A DNA stretch of 64,000 bases from the NCBI RefSeq assembly GCF_057098645.1, contig NZ_CM169472.1; one strand, given 5' to 3'. The translations under genes and the position numbers were made by a program. Positions within the stretch are counted from its first letter, which is position 1; each line of letters starts with the position of its first letter. Shown here piece after piece: positions 292-48,018 of this stretch. The notes beneath the pieces were generated by a model. The model made no database searches, was not told where the DNA came from, and saw only the letters and a program-made list of their open reading frames with translations.

Positions 292-570
292 ATGCACAAT
301 AAAAAAATCCCGACCCTGAGGGGGTCGGGATGAAACTTGCTTAAGCAAGAAGCACTTAAAAAATTCGTTACACCAGGAAATCTGATGTGTTCATCACCTT
401 ATCCGCAATTTTTTTCGCTGACAAGAAAATATTCGCTATATGAATGATTAACGCTACTTATGAATAGAAATGTGACGCACGTCACCCCTTGGTGGCTCTG
501 GCGTCAGCGGGATCGCTCCCGAAAAAATCATCTTTGATTATTTGTGCTGTTTTGAGAATCATCCTGGTAA

Positions 571-3095
<2,525 letters not shown>

Positions 3096-3265
3096 CCTGA
3101 CGACTCCCCACCTGCTTTTTTATGATTCTGGCATAACCTGGCGATAGCGTACCGCAAAACAGCGATAATTTTATAATGGTGGCATGATAAGACGCGACTA
3201 TCATTCATTGCAGGCATTGGCACATCAGGCCGGATGTGATCCGGCCTGGTCTTAATGATACCCTT

Positions 3266-3448
3266 TCAAACTTCTTCCGCAGGACGACTCCCCTCCCCCG
3301 GAACAAGCTCGGTTTCATGAAAAGCTTCCCGCTTGACCCCGTAACCGTCATACCAACGACACTCAACCATACCGCTGGAGTATCCAGTGACAATCATCCG
3401 CGGGCCACCCTCTTTAACCGTAACTTCCTCACTAACCATAAAGCTCAT
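3266..3448 (-). CDS. yodC: Small protein YodC
   Basis: 60-aa ORF MSFMVSEEVTVKEGGPRMIVTGY... in the expected position between yedQ and yedI. Confidence 0.65.
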   Translation of the reverse strand: MSFMVSEEVTVKEGGPRMIVTGYSSGMVECRWYDGYGVKREAFHETELVPGEGSRPAEEV

Positions 3449-3526
3449 ACTCGCCTCCTTTTTTCGAGTGAAATTTGTTCACCTTAGTTGAAGATGGCGA
3501 ATTTTGCATAATAGCCTGTGCGAGTT

Positions 3527-4444
3527 TTAATGTGCCTGACCGCGCATTTTCTCTACGGCTTTCACTCCCAGCACCACGATGCCGCCGATGATAAATCCAA
3601 GAATCAGATTTAAAACAGTCGGTAATATCATCGCCACCACTGCACTTTGCTGCCCGGCGAAATGTTCAATGGCGTGATGCAGCGGCGCAATACCATGTAC
3701 CACAATCCCGCCGCCGACGAGGAACATCGCCAGCGTGCCGACAATCGATAACGCTTTCATCAGCCAGGGCGCAATGATCAATAACCCTTTACCTAATGCC
3801 TGCATCAGCGTGCTGGATTTTTCCGCCAGCCAATACCCCAGGTCATCAATCTTAACGATAACCCCTACCAGACCGTAGACGCCCACGGTCACTACCAGCG
3901 CGATGCCTGACAGTACCAGCACCTGATTAATCAACGGCGCTTCGGCCACAATCCCCAGCGTGATGGCGACGATTTCGGCAGACAATATAAAATCGGTACG
4001 AATCGCTCCTTTTATTTTGTCCTTTTCAAACTTCAGCGGATCCTGCGCCGCCAGCTTCTCCAGACGCTGCTGGCTCTGCGCCGGATCTTCCTTATGTTTA
4101 CGCGCCTCCAGCATATGCAGCACTTTCTCTACCCCTTCAAAGCAGAGAAACGCGCCACCAATCATCAACAGAGGCGTAATCGCCCACGGGATAAACGCAC
4201 TGATGATCAGCGCCAGTGGCACCAGAATCACTTTATTAATCAGCGATCCTTTCGCCACGCCCCAGACCACGGGAAGTTCCCGGTTGGCCCGCACGCCTGA
4301 AACTTGTTGCGCATTGAGCGATAAGTCATCCCCTAATACACCGGCGGTTTTCTTCGCCGCCAGTTTGCCCATCACGGAGATATCGTCCAGCAGTGTGGCG
4401 ATATCATCGAGCAACGTCAGTAAACTACTCCCGGCCAAAAGCAT
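3527..4444 (-). CDS. yedI: DUF808 inner membrane protein
   Basis: 305-aa ORF with several hydrophobic segments; conserved position. Confidence 0.8.
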
Positions 4445-8499: not shown

Positions 8500-8729
8500 T
8501 TTGAGATAACCCGGAAAATTCAGACTTAGTACTATTATGTGATAAAAATCACATTTTTCCACATTGAATGAGCCAGTCAAGACTCAATCATTTTTTGAAC
8601 AAATAGATAATTTTTGCGCAACGGCAGTGAATACAAGAAAAATCGTTTTGAGCGATTTTATTTATCTTTGATATCGGCTTTATTAATTCATTCAATCAAT
8701 ATATTAGCACTGATTACAATTATACCTTT

Positions 8730-8822
8730 TTATTATTCTGTGTCATGATGCCTCCGTTATTAGCCTTTTATCGTCTTGTTTATATTTTTTGGGCCGGCAT
8801 GATGCCGGCTTTTTTTTATGCC
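8730..8822 (+). ncRNA. Candidate small RNA with intrinsic terminator (position matches the RseX locus between yedR and yedS)
   Basis: GC hairpin gccggcATGATgccggc followed by T8 at 8793-8822 on the + strand, with no CDS upstream on that strand. 5' end not determinable by eye. Confidence 0.3.
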
Positions 8823-10792: not shown

Positions 10793-11341
10793 ATGACTGT
10801 TCAAACAAGTAAAAATCCGCAGGTCGATATTGCTGAAGATAATGCATTCTTCCCTTCAGAATATTCGCTTAGCCAATATACCAGTCCTGTCTCTGATCTT
10901 GATGGCGTGGACTATCCAAAACCGTATCGCGGTAAACATAAAATTCTGGTGATCGCCGCGGACGAACGTTATTTGCCAACCGATAACGGAAAACTGTTCT
11001 CGACCGGTAACCATCCGATTGAAACGTTGCTGCCGTTGTATCATCTCCATGCTGCAGGTTTCGAATTCGAAGTGGCGACCATTTCCGGTCTGATGACCAA
11101 GTTTGAATACTGGGCTATGCCGCACAAAGATGAAAAAGTAATGCCATTCTTTGAGCAGCATAAATCGTTGTTCCGCAATCCGAAGAAACTCGCGGATGTT
11201 GTCGCCAGCCTCAACGCTGATAGCGAATATGCAGCAATCTTTGTTCCTGGTGGTCATGGCGCACTTATTGGTTTACCTGAAAGCCAGGACGTAGCTGCCG
11301 CTTTACAGTGGGCAATCAAAAATGGGTTTTTTGTTGCCTGA
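10793..11341 (+). pseudogene. hchA: hchA (Hsp31 glyoxalase) 5' fragment, interrupted by prophage integration
   Basis: First ~177 residues match HchA (MTVQTSKNPQVDIAEDNAFFPSEY... AAALQWAIKN), then the frame runs into phage DNA (GFFVA, stop). The missing C-terminus is found at 47701-48018. Confidence 0.85.
11316..11336. other. attL junction (host hchA / phage)
   Basis: hchA reading frame diverges after ...gcaatcaaaaatg; imperfect identity with the right junction (AAATGggTTTTtTGTT versus AAATGaccgTTTTGTT). Confidence 0.5.
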
Positions 11342-11390: not shown

Positions 11391-11412
11391 TGGCGACAAA
11401 ATGGCGGCAGCG
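11391..11412. repeat. 22-bp direct repeat, putative integrase arm-type site (copy 1)
   Basis: TGGCGACAAAATGGCGGCAGCG, about 70 bp inside attL; near-identical copy at 47582-47603 inside attR. Confidence 0.4.
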
Positions 11413-36823: not shown

Positions 36824-37057
36824 TCAATGCAGCCAGCTGTCGTCTTCCCACACCTTCTGCATAATTTTCATCACTTGTTTTCTTTCTTCGTCCAGTTGCA
36901 GTCCGGTCAGTTCCACACCGTTAGAGCTACCTTTACGGATACGGATTACCGTTTTGGGATACAGGGGGCGCAGATTGCGGTAAAGCTCGGATTCAAGGGC
37001 GTCCAGGGTAGACTGGCTAATCTTCTGCTCTTTATCGATCATTATTTCAATGCGCAT
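36824..37057 (-). CDS. DinI-family protein
   Basis: MRIEIMIDKEQKISQSTLDALESEL...QKVWEDDSW resembles DinI (MRIEVTIAK...ETWESADDW). Confidence 0.7.
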   Translation of the reverse strand: MRIEIMIDKEQKISQSTLDALESELYRNLRPLYPKTVIRIRKGSSNGVELTGLQLDEERKQVMKIMQKVWEDDSWLH

Positions 37058-37067
37058 AAAAGTCACC

Positions 37068-37256
37068 TCAGCTGATGACATCCATTGAGCGGTTGTATTC
37101 GTGGCTTCTGATTTTTGCCATGAGTTCATCAGTCAATTCAGAAACCCACTGCAGAGCCAGCCCCTTCTCTTCATCACTACACTCACTAGCCGCTACAAGC
37201 TTAAGAAAAAAATCAATGCGCTGGAGCTTCAAAGACTCCAAAAAATAGTCCTGCAT
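37068..37256 (-). CDS. Small SOS-controlled protein, possible Tum-like antirepressor
   Basis: 62-aa ORF directly downstream of a LexA box and upstream of the dinI-like gene, the arrangement of the 186 tum operon. Sequence similarity not confirmed. Confidence 0.35.
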   Translation of the reverse strand: MQDYFLESLKLQRIDFFLKLVAASECSDEEKGLALQWVSELTDELMAKIRSHEYNRSMDVIS

Positions 37257-37299
37257 CTTTCCTCCTATGACACCACAAGAAATACTGTATGTATAACCA

Positions 37300-37315
37300 C
37301 TGTTTATATTTACAG
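37300..37315. promoter_or_regulatory. LexA operator (SOS box)
   Basis: CTGTTTATATTTACAG matches the CTGT-N8-ACAG consensus, about 45 bp upstream of the tum-like ORF. Confidence 0.6.
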
Positions 37316-37410
37316 TATATAATAATCTTACTGATGTAAAACGTTTTTTTTACGCTTATCAGCTTGATATGCCTGGTATTATTAAGAGCACGAATTGTTA
37401 ACCAGCGTAA

Positions 37411-44190: not shown

Positions 44191-44384
44191 TTGTTCCCCC
44201 GTTTTTTCGTAGATAGTTCTGCCAGCAATTCATCTTGTGAACGGCACGGATGCCAGCGTTTACCATCCTCACCCATGATCCAGCCGTGACCGTAGTGCAT
44301 TGCCGGGCTTTGTTTTACCAGCAGCGATGCAAATGATGGTTCTTTCGTCAGCATAAGCACCTCACAGCAAACCGAATGAAGCAC
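44154..44384 (-). CDS. Hypothetical small protein
   Basis: 76-aa ORF overlapping both neighbours; coding status uncertain. Confidence 0.3.
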   Translation of the reverse strand: MLHSVCCEVLMLTKEPSFASLLVKQSPAMHYGHGWIMGEDGKRWHPCRSQDELLAELSTKKRGNKWLLKALRRLFH

Positions 44385-44877
44385 CGAGGCCAGTCACGGT
44401 ATCAACTGCACTCGCCATCGCAGGATTAGCCTGTAAACGGGCCTGCAATGAAACAGCCGCCAGCGCCATCAGTCGTGTTACAGAGTTAATGCTGCTGATA
44501 GCATCACGACGACCGGCACAGGTTTTTACATCGCCAGATACCGCACCTGCAGCAACACGCCCGATCTCTGCGGTTGCACTCATGACGTAATGTGGCAGTT
44601 TCTCTTTTGCCACCTCATTAATCGGTACACATGGCAGACAATGAATCTGTGCCAGAAAACCATCTACCAGCGTTGAATCTTCAGTCAGATCGGTAAGCAG
44701 CCAGATTTCTGGTGCGGTTAATAAATGAGGTTGAGCTGGGTTCAGCTTGTTCCGCAGAATCTGCACATTCATGCCAGCACGTTCTGCCAGTTGCACCAGG
44801 TTGTGGCGCAATGCGAATGCACGACAGGCTTCATCAAAATGTGGATGTTTGGAAACTTGGTAATCAAACATGGTCAA
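44362..44877 (-). CDS. Replication protein gpB-like
   Basis: 171-aa ORF downstream of cox, upstream of A, as in P2/186. Confidence 0.55.
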
Positions 44878-44903: not shown

Positions 44904-45125
44904 CTAATTAAGGTTTAGATTGCATTCTGAAAGCGCATCAACGGTCATTGCTGCTATGTTGATCATCACTTTTTCGCGTTTTTTATCTTTGCGCAGACGG
45001 TGACGGATAAGGCGTCCATCAGCCAACATGTCATTGATGGTATCGATGGATAGCCCTGTCAGCTCGCTATAGCGTTCAATAGTCACATGAGGCGTGGTAA
45101 GAGTGATTGAAATGTTAGGTCTCAT
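44904..45125 (-). CDS. Cox/Apl-like excisionase and switch regulator
   Basis: 73-aa HTH protein divergent from the repressor gene (...[22 protein letters not shown]...). Confidence 0.55.
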
Positions 45126-45244: not shown

Positions 45245-45820
45245 GTGACCATGAATTTGGAGAAAGGCGGACGAGGCGCTATAGAGCGCATGGTAGAAGC
45301 TTATGGATTCAAGACTCGACAGGCGTTGTGCGATCATTTAGGAATCTCTAAAAGTACACTCGCCACACGCTACATGCGTGACTCATTCCCAGCAGAATGG
45401 GTAATCCAGTGCGCCCTTGAAACAGGCACCTCGCTTAATTGGCTCACAACCGGGCATGGTTCAAAGCAAACTTCAGGTAATACAAATACTATGGAAGTTG
45501 CTAAATATGTATTATCTGATGGGGCCTTGTGTGAAGACGGTTTTTATATTTTCGATAGAGAATTTCTACCGTCGGCATTCAAGAATCTTTTTGTAATCAC
45601 AGATAATAATTCTGAATTTATTTGTGATAAGGAATTTGATGATATACGTGATGGTAAATGGGTAATAAGTATTGATGGCGAAATAACGATCCGTGACATT
45701 ACTCGTTTACCCGGTGGAAGAATCTTCGTCGAGGGTGGAAACAGAGCCTTCGAATGCAAGATAGAAGACATTGAAATAATTGGTAAAATTATAAGCTTAA
45801 CAGTCAAGTATGTTAAATAG
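45245..45820 (+). CDS. 186-type CI immunity repressor
   Basis: 191-aa ORF; N-terminus ...MVEAYGFKTRQALCDHLGISKSTLATRYMRD...CALETGTSLNWLTTGHG resembles 186 CI; followed by int on the same strand. Confidence 0.7.
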   Translation: MTMNLEKGGRGAIERMVEAYGFKTRQALCDHLGISKSTLATRYMRDSFPAEWVIQCALETGTSLNWLTTGHGSKQTSGNTNTMEVAKYVLSDGALCEDGFYIFDREFLPSAFKNLFVITDNNSEFICDKEFDDIRDGKWVISIDGEITIRDITRLPGGRIFVEGGNRAFECKIEDIEIIGKIISLTVKYVK

Positions 45821-45835
45821 TACCGGGAGGAAATT

Positions 45836-46027
45836 ATGCTTGGTAAGGTATTTTTTGTGGTTTTGTCATGTTCTTTGTTATTAAACCCACTAGCTACCTA
45901 TGCTAGAAATTATCCCTGCTCAGGGAAAAAGGGAGGTGTTTCTCACTGTACCTCTGATGGCAAATTCGTTTGCAATGATGGAACTATTAGTAAATCCAAA
46001 AAAATCTGTACTAAAAACTCACGATAA
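45836..46027 (+). CDS. Small secreted cysteine-rich peptide (lysogenic-operon cargo)
   Basis: 63-aa ORF with signal peptide ([19 protein letters not shown]) and about 40-aa mature part with 5 Cys and many Lys/Gly; RBS ggagg upstream. Confidence 0.45.
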
Positions 46028-46215
46028 CTTTTGCTTTTATATCTGCGCCTAAAATAAAAATGAGCCACAGGTTAACCGCAAAAGTTACATGCTCACATAG
46101 CAAAAAGAATAGCCTACTTCATTATGGCTTCAGTGAGATGTATGGTCGCAGGATTTCATACATTGAAACTGGTTATACATACAGTAAAAATGCTCTCTAT
46201 TGGAGGGCATTTTTT

Positions 46216-47247
46216 ATGGCTGTACGAAAACTCACCACAGGAAAATGGCTTTGCGAATGTTACCCCGCCGGACGTAGTGGGCGTCGTGTGCGTAAACAAT
46301 TCGCCACCAAAGGCGAAGCACTGGCTTTTGAGCGTCACACGATGGAAGAAACCGAAGCAAAGCCCTGGCTGGGTGAATCAGTGGATCGTCGAACACTGAA
46401 AGACGTGGTTGAGCTATGGTTCAAACTACATGGTAAATCACTGACTGCTGGGCAGCATGTCTATGACAAATTGCTGCTGATGGTTGACGCTCTGGGCAAT
46501 CCCCTTGCAACTGATCTCACATCTAAAATGTTTGCCCACTATCGAGATAAACGCCTGACAGGTGAGATCTACTTCAGCGAGAAATGGAAGAAAGGAGCAA
46601 GCCCGGTCACCATTAACCTGGAGCAAAGCTATCTAAGTAGTGTTTTTAGCGAACTATCCCGCCTGGGCGAATGGTCGTATCCGAACCCACTGGAGAACAT
46701 GCGAAAATTCACCATCGCAGAAAAAGAGATGGCATGGCTTACCCATGAGCAGATTGTTGAATTGCTGGCTGATTGCAAACGTCAGGACCCAATTCTGGCA
46801 CTGGTAGTTAAGATATGCTTAAGCACAGGCGCACGTTGGCGTGAAGCCGTAAATCTTACCCGCTCACAGGTGACCAAATACCGAATTACCTTTGTAAGAA
46901 CGAAGGGGAAGAAAAACAGAAGCATCCCTATCAGTAAAGAGCTTTACGAAGAGATCATGGCGCTTGATGGGTTCAATTTCTTTACAGACTGCTATTTTCA
47001 ATTTTTATCCGTGATGGAAAAAACGTCTATCGTGCTCCCTCGCGGTCAACTGACACACGTTCTGCGCCATACGTTTGCGGCGCACTTCATGATGTCGGGT
47101 GGAAATATCCTGGCCTTACAAAAAATTCTCGGGCATCACGATATAAAAATGACTATGCGTTACGCACATCTGGCACCGGATCACCTGGAAACTGCATTAC
47201 GGTTTAATCCGCTGGCAACACTACCAACATCAATAGCAAGTTTTTGA
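46216..47247 (+). CDS. int: Tyrosine integrase (P2/186 family)
   Basis: 343-aa product from MAVRKLTTGKW...; C-terminal catalytic region (HVLRHTFA...MRYAHL) with conserved R/H/Y residues. Confidence 0.85.
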   Translation: MAVRKLTTGKWLCECYPAGRSGRRVRKQFATKGEALAFERHTMEETEAKPWLGESVDRRTLKDVVELWFKLHGKSLTAGQHVYDKLLLMVDALGNPLATDLTSKMFAHYRDKRLTGEIYFSEKWKKGASPVTINLEQSYLSSVFSELSRLGEWSYPNPLENMRKFTIAEKEMAWLTHEQIVELLADCKRQDPILALVVKICLSTGARWREAVNLTRSQVTKYRITFVRTKGKKNRSIPISKELYEEIMALDGFNFFTDCYFQFLSVMEKTSIVLPRGQLTHVLRHTFAAHFMMSGGNILALQKILGHHDIKMTMRYAHLAPDHLETALRFNPLATLPTSIASF

Positions 47248-47305: not shown

Positions 47306-47575
47306 ATGAATAAGTTTCAGCATCAGGGAGCGGAATTGCGCAACAGAGCCAAAGAATTGGCTTTATCCGTACTTAAAACTCACCCAGATGCCCAAAAAAA
47401 CGGCAACGGCGTTAAGCAAGCTGAGGTATTTCGTCTAAGCGGCCTCGATTGGGGAGAAAAACGGAAAGCAACAAGTTCGAACCAACAATATTGGGTTGTT
47501 GCACTATTGCGTGAACTAGAAGAGGAGGGGTTAGTCGAACAGATTGAAGATAGAGGCCCCTGGCGTCTAAGGTAA
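47306..47575 (+). CDS. Hypothetical protein between int and attR, possible winged-helix regulator
   Basis: 89-aa ORF; C-terminal YWVVALLRELEEEGLVEQIEDRGPWRL resembles a winged-helix recognition element. Confidence 0.35.
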   Translation: MNKFQHQGAELRNRAKELALSVLKTHPDAQKNGNGVKQAEVFRLSGLDWGEKRKATSSNQQYWVVALLRELEEEGLVEQIEDRGPWRLR

Positions 47576-47691: not shown

Positions 47692-47712
47692 ATAAATGAC
47701 CGTTTTGTTATC
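47692..47712. other. attR junction (phage / host hchA)
   Basis: hchA frame resumes exactly here (..aaatgac cgt ttt gtt atc = N D R F V I). Confidence 0.5.
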
Positions 47713-48018
47713 TCCCTTTGCCACGGCCCGGCGGCTTTTCTGGCGCTTCGCCACGGCGATAACCCACTGAATGGTTATTCCATTTGCGCATTCCCAGACG
47801 CCGCAGACAAACAAACGCCAGAGATAGGCTATATGCCGGGTCATCTCACCTGGTACTTCGGCGAAGAGCTGAAGAAAATGGGCATGAACATTATTAATGA
47901 CGACATCACCGGGCGAGTACATAAGGACCGTAAAGTTCTCACCGGCGACAGTCCTTTCGCAGCGAATGCGTTGGGTAAACTGGCGGCGCAGGAAATGCTG
48001 GCAGCTTACGCGGGTTAA
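47701..48018 (+). pseudogene. hchA: hchA 3' fragment
   Basis: Encodes RFVISLCHGPAAFLALRHGDNPLNGYSICAFPDAADKQTPEIGYMPGHLTWY...AAYAG, the HchA C-terminus including the catalytic Cys region. Confidence 0.85.

Follow-up and report, generated by a model that had tools for sequence, protein, structure and literature searches.

Why would a temperate phage keep a gene of only 63 codons directly behind its repressor gene, and what might the product of such a gene do in the lysogen? The question is raised by an open reading frame (ORF), here called ORF63, in a 186-like (Peduoviridae) prophage on contig NZ_CM169472.1 (RefSeq assembly GCF_057098645.1), of which we analysed a stretch of 64,000 nucleotides (nt), referred to below as the window and numbered from its first letter. 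An initial annotation had proposed a 63-residue product at 45836-46027, between the repressor gene cI and the integrase gene int, and the ORF was found exactly there, on the plus strand, with its ATG at 45836, its stop codon at 46025-46027, a Shine-Dalgarno sequence and matches to family hidden Markov models (HMMs). Its start lies 15 nt past the cI stop codon (45818-45820). ORF63 is a real gene of the YdcA family that is under extreme purifying selection and keeps a constant position behind cI; it is no novelty in itself, being a member of a catalogued, functionally uncharacterised family. Its parts are:

45825..45830, plus strand: Shine-Dalgarno sequence GGGAGG, read from the sequence, 5 nt upstream of the ORF63 ATG and within the 15-nt gap after the cI stop.
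45836..45904, plus strand: predicted signal-peptide codons M1-A23, with a predicted signal peptidase I cleavage TYA/RN and the n/h/c anatomy read from the sequence.
45905..46027, plus strand: mature YdcA-family peptide R24-R63 and stop codon (NF007463, phrog_6000, PF27300, dN/dS far below 0.1, AlphaFold2 model, Dis2 homology).

The assignment to the family comes from several profiles. ORF63 scores 114.6 bits against NCBIfam NF007463 (PRK10040.1-2), for which the curated cut-off is 93 (E=1.3e-33), and matches phrog_6000, a group listed there with function unknown, over the full profile (E=3.1e-34). Pfam PF27300 "YdcA" is precomputed on a protein identical to ORF63 (P0001); our local Pfam-A scan of ORF63 gave no real match, that copy of Pfam being without the PF27300 model. 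In the public databases the identical protein sits in a 90%-identity cluster whose 355 sequences occur on at least 1000 contigs, and an exhaustive profile search places 477 clusters at 50% identity in the family as a whole. The founding member of PF27300 and of NCBI PRK10040 is YdcA of E. coli K-12 (b1419), a 57-residue protein predicted to be periplasmic and of unknown function (PMC11340327). The two proteins are 57% identical and share a signal peptide, four Cys, the motif CSGxKGGxSHC...FVCNDGxxSxSKKxC and a predicted periplasmic location. They differ in that K-12 ydcA belongs to the core chromosome, where rydC and cybB are its neighbours, whereas ORF63 is phage cargo in the cI operon, and in subfamily, since ORF63 matches NF007463 and scores 68.5 bits, under the cut-off of 118, against the K-12 equivalog NF007462. 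The consensus drawn from 141 domains reads CSGxKGGishC..FvCnDGsxSxSKkxC, and the charge of the core averages +3, compared to +4 in ORF63. The cI-ORF63-int arrangement is present in about 589 of 5426 complete E. coli genomes (~11%), BL21 included, where RefSeq labels ORF63 'YdcA family protein' or 'hypothetical protein'; in UniRef the identical protein bears the automatic name 'Conjugal transfer protein'. Papers on a 'ydcA' of the gonococcal island, the F plasmid and Bacillus were set aside, as the name appears to mean other genes there.

The absence of conservation in related prophages, or of codon-level conservation, had been named at the outset as the finding that would speak against the gene; what we found is conservation on both counts. 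In the 32-codon core of the mature peptide, the window and BL21 differ at 8 of 96 positions, and all eight changes are synonymous (non-synonymous divergence dN 0, synonymous divergence dS 0.54); against the alleles of other prophages, dN in the mature core is 0.013-0.03 and dS is saturated. When the window is compared with 186-like prophages of five enterobacterial genera and with Haemophilus phage HP2, the mature peptide is 76-94% identical, versus 27-44% for cI, 48-54% for Int and 14-38% for the signal peptide, the last reaching 65% against the Enterobacter prophage. Three of these comparisons with the window are given below, as percentages of identity:

Yersinia prophage: cI 35%, Int 49%, signal peptide 32%, mature peptide 88%.
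Enterobacter prophage: cI 42%, Int 54%, signal peptide 65%, mature peptide 94%.
Haemophilus phage HP2: cI 38%, Int 51%, signal peptide 25%, mature peptide 76%.

No other protein of the lysogeny module comes close to the mature ORF63 peptide in conservation. That it hardly varies from Haemophilus to Yersinia speaks for a universal ligand and against a partner specific to one phage or lineage.

The N-terminus of ORF63 reads as a Sec-type signal peptide, with an n-region MLGK, a hydrophobic core of 12 residues and then NPLATYA before R24, and a predicted cut after Ala23. The Ala at position -1 of the cleavage site is invariant in the alignment (30 of 30 homologues). The mature peptide of 40 residues would carry a net charge of +7 and contains four Cys, C28, C38, C46 and C58, all of them invariant. 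In the proposal of a signal peptide followed by a Cys-rich mature peptide of about 40 residues with five Cys, the signal peptide and the length stand, and the Cys count does not: the fifth, C12, which is not conserved, belongs to the hydrophobic core of the signal peptide. The full set of positions that are invariant across the 30 aligned sequences is A23, P27, C28, S29, K32, G33, G34, C38, F44, C46, D48, G49, S52, S54, K55 and C58. An AlphaFold2 model built on a 30-sequence alignment shows the signal helix and then a small beta-rich knot, with a mean predicted local distance difference test score (pLDDT) of 79, and of 83-91 over residues 31-60. An exclusion lipoprotein of the Cor/Llp type was considered and rejected, because the signal peptide of ORF63 does not end in a lipobox [LVI][ASTVI][GAS]C; V-L-S-C12 has just 7 hydrophobic residues ahead of the Cys, and homologues with a Cys there have F or I at -1.

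The relationship that says most about where such a peptide would reside is to Dis2 (Lpg0823), a periplasmic component of the Legionella Dot/Icm secretion system that consists of two similar lobes and five disulfides, which take up all its Cys. Dis2 lies just beneath the outer membrane, in contact with the lipoproteins DotC, DotD and DotK, and has been described in the literature as Legionella-specific and devoid of structural relatives. It is the top profile match to the YdcA family in the Protein Data Bank (PDB 7MUC/7MUD chain AN; hmmsearch, E=1.3e-4) and the top Foldseek match of the ORF63 model (probability 0.98, 38% identity, TM-score about 0.43), and hhalign aligns YdcA with it over 20 columns (probability 61%, E=8e-5). 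A Dis2-like protein carries PF27300 and aligns lobe by lobe with YdcA, its lobes reading CCSK-MGGVNYC-DSSAGRLVC-NNGFYSTC and CCLWRGGV...GLVLCNDGSISEEC. A Foldseek search of ORF63 against viral structures (BFVD) returned nothing under E=1. Dis2 and ORF63 would share a Cys-pinned periplasmic mini-domain with the motif GG..C....VCNDG.xS, and Dis2 is the only solved structure with the fold. Unlike the single-lobed ORF63, Dis2 has tandem lobes and is a stoichiometric subunit of a secretion system, while around ORF63 we found no secretion-system genes, its neighbours being those of the 186-like prophage. The homology to Dis2 supports the view that the YdcA family is periplasmic and disulfide-bonded. 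Taken with the variable signal peptide and its invariant -1 Ala, it fits the small, exported and Cys-stabilised peptide that had been predicted, and both the periplasmic location and the oxidised Cys of ORF63 can be strongly inferred from the signal peptide and the disulfides seen in Dis2 by cryo-electron microscopy.

The place of ORF63 was confirmed by Pfam matches to the genes on either side, and the lysogeny region around it can be listed as follows:

44362..44877, minus strand: cII (Pfam Phage_CP76).
44904..45125, minus strand: Apl/Cox-like gene.
45251..45820, plus strand: cI repressor of the 186-like (Peduoviridae) prophage, first gene of the lysogenic operon (Pfam Phage_CI_repr E=2.8e-33, Phage_CI_C E=2.7e-27).
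46216..47247, plus strand: int, tyrosine integrase (Pfam Int_N, Phage_integrase), 96% identical in nucleotides to int of Klebsiella phage KP12 and others.

In 186-like prophages of Escherichia, Klebsiella, Enterobacter, Hafnia and Yersinia, with differing cI alleles, ORF63 is always the first gene after cI and on the same strand. The same place is occupied in a distantly related member of the Peduoviridae, Haemophilus phage HP2 (NC_003315), where an unannotated 60-residue ORF of the YdcA family at 2944-3126, also present in the HP2-like S2, lies on the same strand immediately after cI and has a mature peptide 76% identical to that of ORF63. It differs from ORF63 in that its ATG overlaps the cI stop and that another gene, orf1(S) (3136-3900), intervenes before int; orf1(S) encodes a secreted protein with an OB fold (tRNA_anti-like) and a match to a 'superinfection exclusion Sie-like' PHROG. 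What lies between cI and int varies, and this cargo slot has the following contents:

SopEPhi: empty.
Phage vB_EcoM-813R9: PD-Lambda-1 homologue.
Two loci, L006 and L010: YdcA gene and a PDC-S20/KAP NTPase gene.
Hafnia: YdcA gene and a 347-residue protein of unknown kind.
HP2: YdcA gene and the secreted OB-fold protein matching the 'Sie-like' PHROG.

ORF63 shares this variable position downstream of cI with the PD-Lambda-1 homologue and the PDC-S20/KAP NTPase. Those are large cytoplasmic NTPases with matches to defence models, whereas ORF63 is a predicted periplasmic peptide of 40 residues; where both are present, the YdcA gene always precedes the NTPase cargo as the first gene after cI. The slot corresponds to the integrase-primase hotspot of P2-like phages, which a published survey lists as a minor defence hotspot of P2 (bioRxiv 10.64898/2026.02.27.708500).

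In base composition ORF63 is AT-rich (~37% GC), and it lies within an AT-rich island at 45500-46200 (33-37% GC versus 46-52% in int and cII) that spans the C-terminal half of cI, ORF63 and the spacer, which is consistent with the three moving as one mosaic module. The prophage as a whole measures ~36.4 kb and is inserted within the coding sequence of hchA (Hsp31), leaving hchA parts at 10793..11341 and 47695..48018; the 5' part runs out into a short foreign tail (IKNGFFVA*), and the frame picks up again at NDRFVISLCHG beyond the prophage. A search for direct repeats as att sites gave nothing useful and the junctions (~11330 and ~47695) were read from the interrupted hchA instead; their shared core is just an imperfect AAATG…TTTTGTT, and arm-type repeats GGCGACAAARTGGCGGCAGCG lie just inside both prophage ends, at 11392 and 47585. 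Between int and the right end is an 89-residue ORF (47306-47575, plus strand) that has no match in Pfam, NCBIfam, PHROG or PADLOC, at a position, 'integrase-att', that the 2026 survey names as a minor cargo hotspot of P2-like phages. Elsewhere in the window, Rfam matches at gathering score are the small RNAs DsrA (305-391, minus strand) and RseX (8727-8816, plus strand) and an ALIL pseudoknot, a frameshift element of insertion sequences (59612-59728, minus strand).

Outside the slot, YdcA-family genes are found within clusters of tail genes in Moraxella Mcat phages, beside the gene for an antirepressor in an Acinetobacter phage and on 58 plasmids, which include mobilisable plasmids of only 3.9-5.4 kb from Acinetobacter and Psychrobacter. 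On two of these, a 3.9-kb plasmid of Acinetobacter pittii (L016, 728-904) and a 5.4-kb plasmid of Psychrobacter (L017, 2932-3105), there are only about five genes in all, and the YdcA gene has a TraD-like or lipoprotein gene on one side and a membrane-protein gene on the other; the two membrane proteins share a short similar region. One apparent E. coli plasmid match (H93) was discarded as a plasmid copy, as it is the chromosomal ydcA locus. A protein of 133 residues with an N-terminal YdcA domain is encoded on a Citrobacter plasmid (L031, NZ_CP053574, 4926-5327) in a type VI secretion cluster, between tssE and a gene for a GIY-YIG/T5orf172 protein. Among cultured phages (INPHARED), a tblastn search with ORF63 matched phages of Moraxella, Acinetobacter, Haemophilus and Pseudomonas and no enterobacterial phage, and a megablast search with the cI-ORF63-int region matched in the int part alone (Klebsiella phages KP12 and 4LV2017, Escherichia phage 813R9). 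In IMG/VR, 527 viral contigs encode a relative of ORF63; the 80 loci listed are 98-100% identical to it, so that this figure is a count rather than a census of diverse contexts.

The initial annotation had put ORF63 on a single cI-int transcript expressed in lysogens. The first half of this claim fares well. A promoter scan and the sequence itself gave no promoter-like or terminator-like site on the plus strand between cI and ORF63, and from this and the 15-nt gap ORF63 is almost certainly part of the repressor operon and transcribed in lysogens. That the same transcript continues through int is questionable, given a candidate promoter and a hairpin ahead of int. The signals downstream of ORF63 are:

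46025..46087, plus strand: long imperfect hairpin directly after the ORF63 stop, without a U-run behind it (RNA fold of 46020-46225, z=-4.5).
46163..46191, plus strand: promoter-like pair, -35 TTGAAA at 46163 and -10 AAAAAT at 46186-46191 (promoter scan).
46167-46186, plus strand: LexA-box-like site AACTGGTTATACATACAGTA, 16 of 20 consensus positions, overlapping the promoter-like pair upstream of int.
46186..46215, plus strand: hairpin followed by a T6 run and containing the int Shine-Dalgarno sequence GGAGGG (RNA fold).

The first hairpin, kept in the BL21 copy and in a further copy (L018), is possibly a stabiliser of the mRNA 3' end. The int module includes the ~60 nt that precede the gene, as homology with Klebsiella phages sets in at ~46156. 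The CTG..CAG of the LexA-like box is invariant in six 186-like loci with different upstream cargo, and the 64-kb window holds two strong sites of this kind versus 0.005 expected by chance. The second, CACTGTTTATATTTACAGTA at 37298-37317 (17 of 20 positions), lies upstream, on the minus strand, of small ORFs including one for a DinI-like protein (36824..37129). In phage 186, tum is an SOS-controlled antirepressor gene, and we take the site at 37298, upstream of DinI-like genes, to be in the position of tum; the region is probably a Tum-like SOS induction module of the prophage. A site at such a position suggests that the LexA scan finds real sites. As for the hairpin before int, its arms covary (GCCCTC/GAGGGC in phage 813R9, GTCCTC/GAGGAC in L006), and it likely terminates or translationally silences read-through from cI-ORF63 into int. 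A transcript from the candidate int promoter would start inside the 5' arm and leave the int Shine-Dalgarno sequence free, whereas read-through from cI-ORF63 would form the full hairpin, resulting in termination or in a hidden Shine-Dalgarno sequence. On these sequence features, the lysogenic message is probably cI-ORF63, with int under a separate, SOS-controlled promoter, and separate control of int strengthens the idea that ORF63 is a dedicated gene of the lysogenic phase.

What the exported domain might do is suggested by five kinds of indirect clue, which we weigh in the order in which they are given here. The strongest is fusion to nucleases: of the 20 long family members that were scanned, 5 begin with a signal peptide and a YdcA domain that are followed by a secreted nuclease, and the nucleases belong to three unrelated folds:

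P0172, P0173 and P0210: Endonuclease_NS.
P0119: SNase (staphylococcal-type nuclease).
P0179: Nuc-like PLD domain, with the periplasmic endonuclease Nuc as its best PDB match (1BYR, E=4e-19).

Next are the invariant Gly/Ser/Lys-rich loops SGKKGG and SKSKK, whose composition suggests loops of a phosphate-contacting kind. The YdcA domain is also found as two or three tandem repeats, and some members have a basic C-terminal tail resembling 'PBCV_basic_adap'. It recurs beside envelope-spanning conduits, as the Dis2 subunit, in the type VI secretion cluster and among plasmid transfer genes, and last in weight is the slot behind cI that it shares with anti-phage genes.

From these clues, the following pathway can be envisioned. 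ORF63 would be translated from the cI mRNA and, since the message is the same, be made continuously in lysogens; it would be exported via Sec, cleaved after Ala23 and, in the periplasm, form a strongly basic mini-domain of 40 residues held by two disulfides. Most likely the domain would serve as a small binding module on the side of the outer membrane that faces the periplasm, and what it binds would probably be a conserved polyanion, for which DNA is the leading candidate, or alternatively an outer-membrane lipoprotein machine. For the prophage the pay-off would most likely be protection of the lysogen at its envelope against incoming foreign DNA or phage, that is, lysogenic conversion of the superinfection-exclusion type. 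T4 Spackle and similar superinfection-exclusion proteins are small, Sec-exported and phage-encoded and act in the periplasm; ORF63 may work alike, though we detected no sequence or fold similarity to proteins of this type. We regard the gene, the family and the export as very probable; export, disulfides and expression in the lysogen are strongly inferred. An exclusion or lysogenic-conversion role is plausible, the ligand and the exclusion role are proposed with low confidence, and the exclusion step taken separately is doubtful. The whole chain, in which binding of a polyanion or machine leads to exclusion at the envelope, is offered tentatively, as a proposal that stands somewhat below an even chance.

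Several observations weigh against envelope exclusion through a polyanion. The nuclease fusions could equally reflect anchoring or retention. PADLOC gave no match for ORF63, and no homology to a described superinfection-exclusion or defence family was found; to our knowledge, an exclusion phenotype has been found for no YdcA-family protein. Because phage DNA is normally shielded from the periplasm as it is injected, it is not obvious how a soluble DNA-binding protein would achieve exclusion. A paralogue, ydcA, already forms part of the core chromosome of E. coli, which argues for a housekeeping role in the envelope over a phage-specific one. Dis2 is without the conserved basic patches (its lobe cores have charges of +1 and -3), and the shared fold therefore implies no shared ligand or function; Dis2 is moreover dispensable for assembly of its secretion system, and its deletion has only subtle effects on translocation. 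The literature found on YdcA, PF27300 and PRK10040 holds nothing beyond statements that the function is unknown, with no functional experiment on any member, and the localisation, disulfides and transcription of ORF63 are predictions.

The main rival explanation takes up the paralogue: ORF63 would be a host-fitness or envelope-stress factor with no anti-phage role, through which the prophage adds an extra, diverged dose of what YdcA does as a periplasmic housekeeping protein, such as conferring tolerance to acid or organic-acid stress. The chromosomal gene is carried by 5415 of the 5426 complete E. coli genomes; deletion of ydcA renders E. coli W sensitive to 300 mM 3-hydroxypropionate, the gene is reported to be up-regulated at pH 5 under the control of YdcI (PMC7642389), and family members also occupy non-mobile chromosomal contexts, such as beside hom and cysS in four loci (L019-L022). 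Against this, YdcA-family genes recur on mobile elements at classic cargo positions, after cI, in Moraxella tail-gene clusters and on mobilisable plasmids of 4-5 kb, and in a slot common to defence genes, and the explanation leaves open why a phage should duplicate a function that every host has. We think it rather unlikely. A second possibility, also unlikely in our estimate, is that ORF63 binds no nucleic acid at all and acts as an adaptor that, like Dis2 on the Dot/Icm cap, docks on assemblies of outer-membrane lipoproteins or on machines that span the envelope and modulates them, for example by blocking conjugative entry or by modifying a type IV or VI secretion system or a phage receptor complex. 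This agrees with Dis2 being a structural subunit that touches DotC, DotD and DotK, with the 133-residue protein between tssE and the GIY-YIG gene, with the YdcA gene beside a TraD-like transfer gene on small MOBQ plasmids and with the automatic 'Conjugal transfer protein' label. Yet the prophage encodes no secretion system, Dis2 is two-lobed and without the basic SKSKK and GKKGG patches, and the near-invariance of the peptide from Haemophilus to Yersinia favours a universal ligand over a lineage-specific protein partner.

The initial annotation had also considered a toxin or bacteriocin-like molecule. ORF63 is small, cationic, Cys-stabilised and predicted to be exported, and a preprint on Pseudomonas protegens lists a YdcA-family gene among loci associated, by association only, with antimicrobial-positive strains. 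A secreted toxin, bacteriocin or microcin-like peptide against competitors is nevertheless highly improbable, because the leader is of the Sec type, without a double glycine, and would deliver the peptide to the periplasm only; because no immunity, export or lysis gene is adjacent, the neighbours being cI and int only; and because the paralogue is a single-copy core gene of nearly every E. coli with no immunity partner. The use of the YdcA domain as the N-terminal module of larger enzymes also speaks against it. That the short and AT-rich ORF63 is an accidental reading frame, or that the stretch from cI to int is spacer without coding function, has a negligible probability and is refuted by the HMM matches (E ~1e-33), by substitutions in the BL21 core that are synonymous only and by the 477 clusters of the family.

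A more far-reaching version of the envelope-exclusion proposal is that the YdcA mini-domain is a universal periplasmic module for DNA or DNA conduits, which phages from Haemophilus to Escherichia use behind the repressor as a constitutive barrier to phage, plasmid and transforming DNA, and whose fold was recruited as Dis2 and as the targeting domain of at least three secreted nuclease families. We consider this quite unlikely as it stands; if true, it would establish a new, very small class of superinfection-exclusion factors and give a function to a core E. coli y-gene. Should the function be mundane, ORF63 is a correctly spotted, already catalogued hypothetical protein. In the literature that could be searched we found no mention of the relationship with Dis2, of the fusions to nucleases, of the constant position next to cI throughout the Peduoviridae, including the unannotated gene of HP2, or of the top rank in conservation. 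The Dis2 link, the fusions and the fixed place next to cI are leads and not proof, and they make this y-gene family experimentally approachable.

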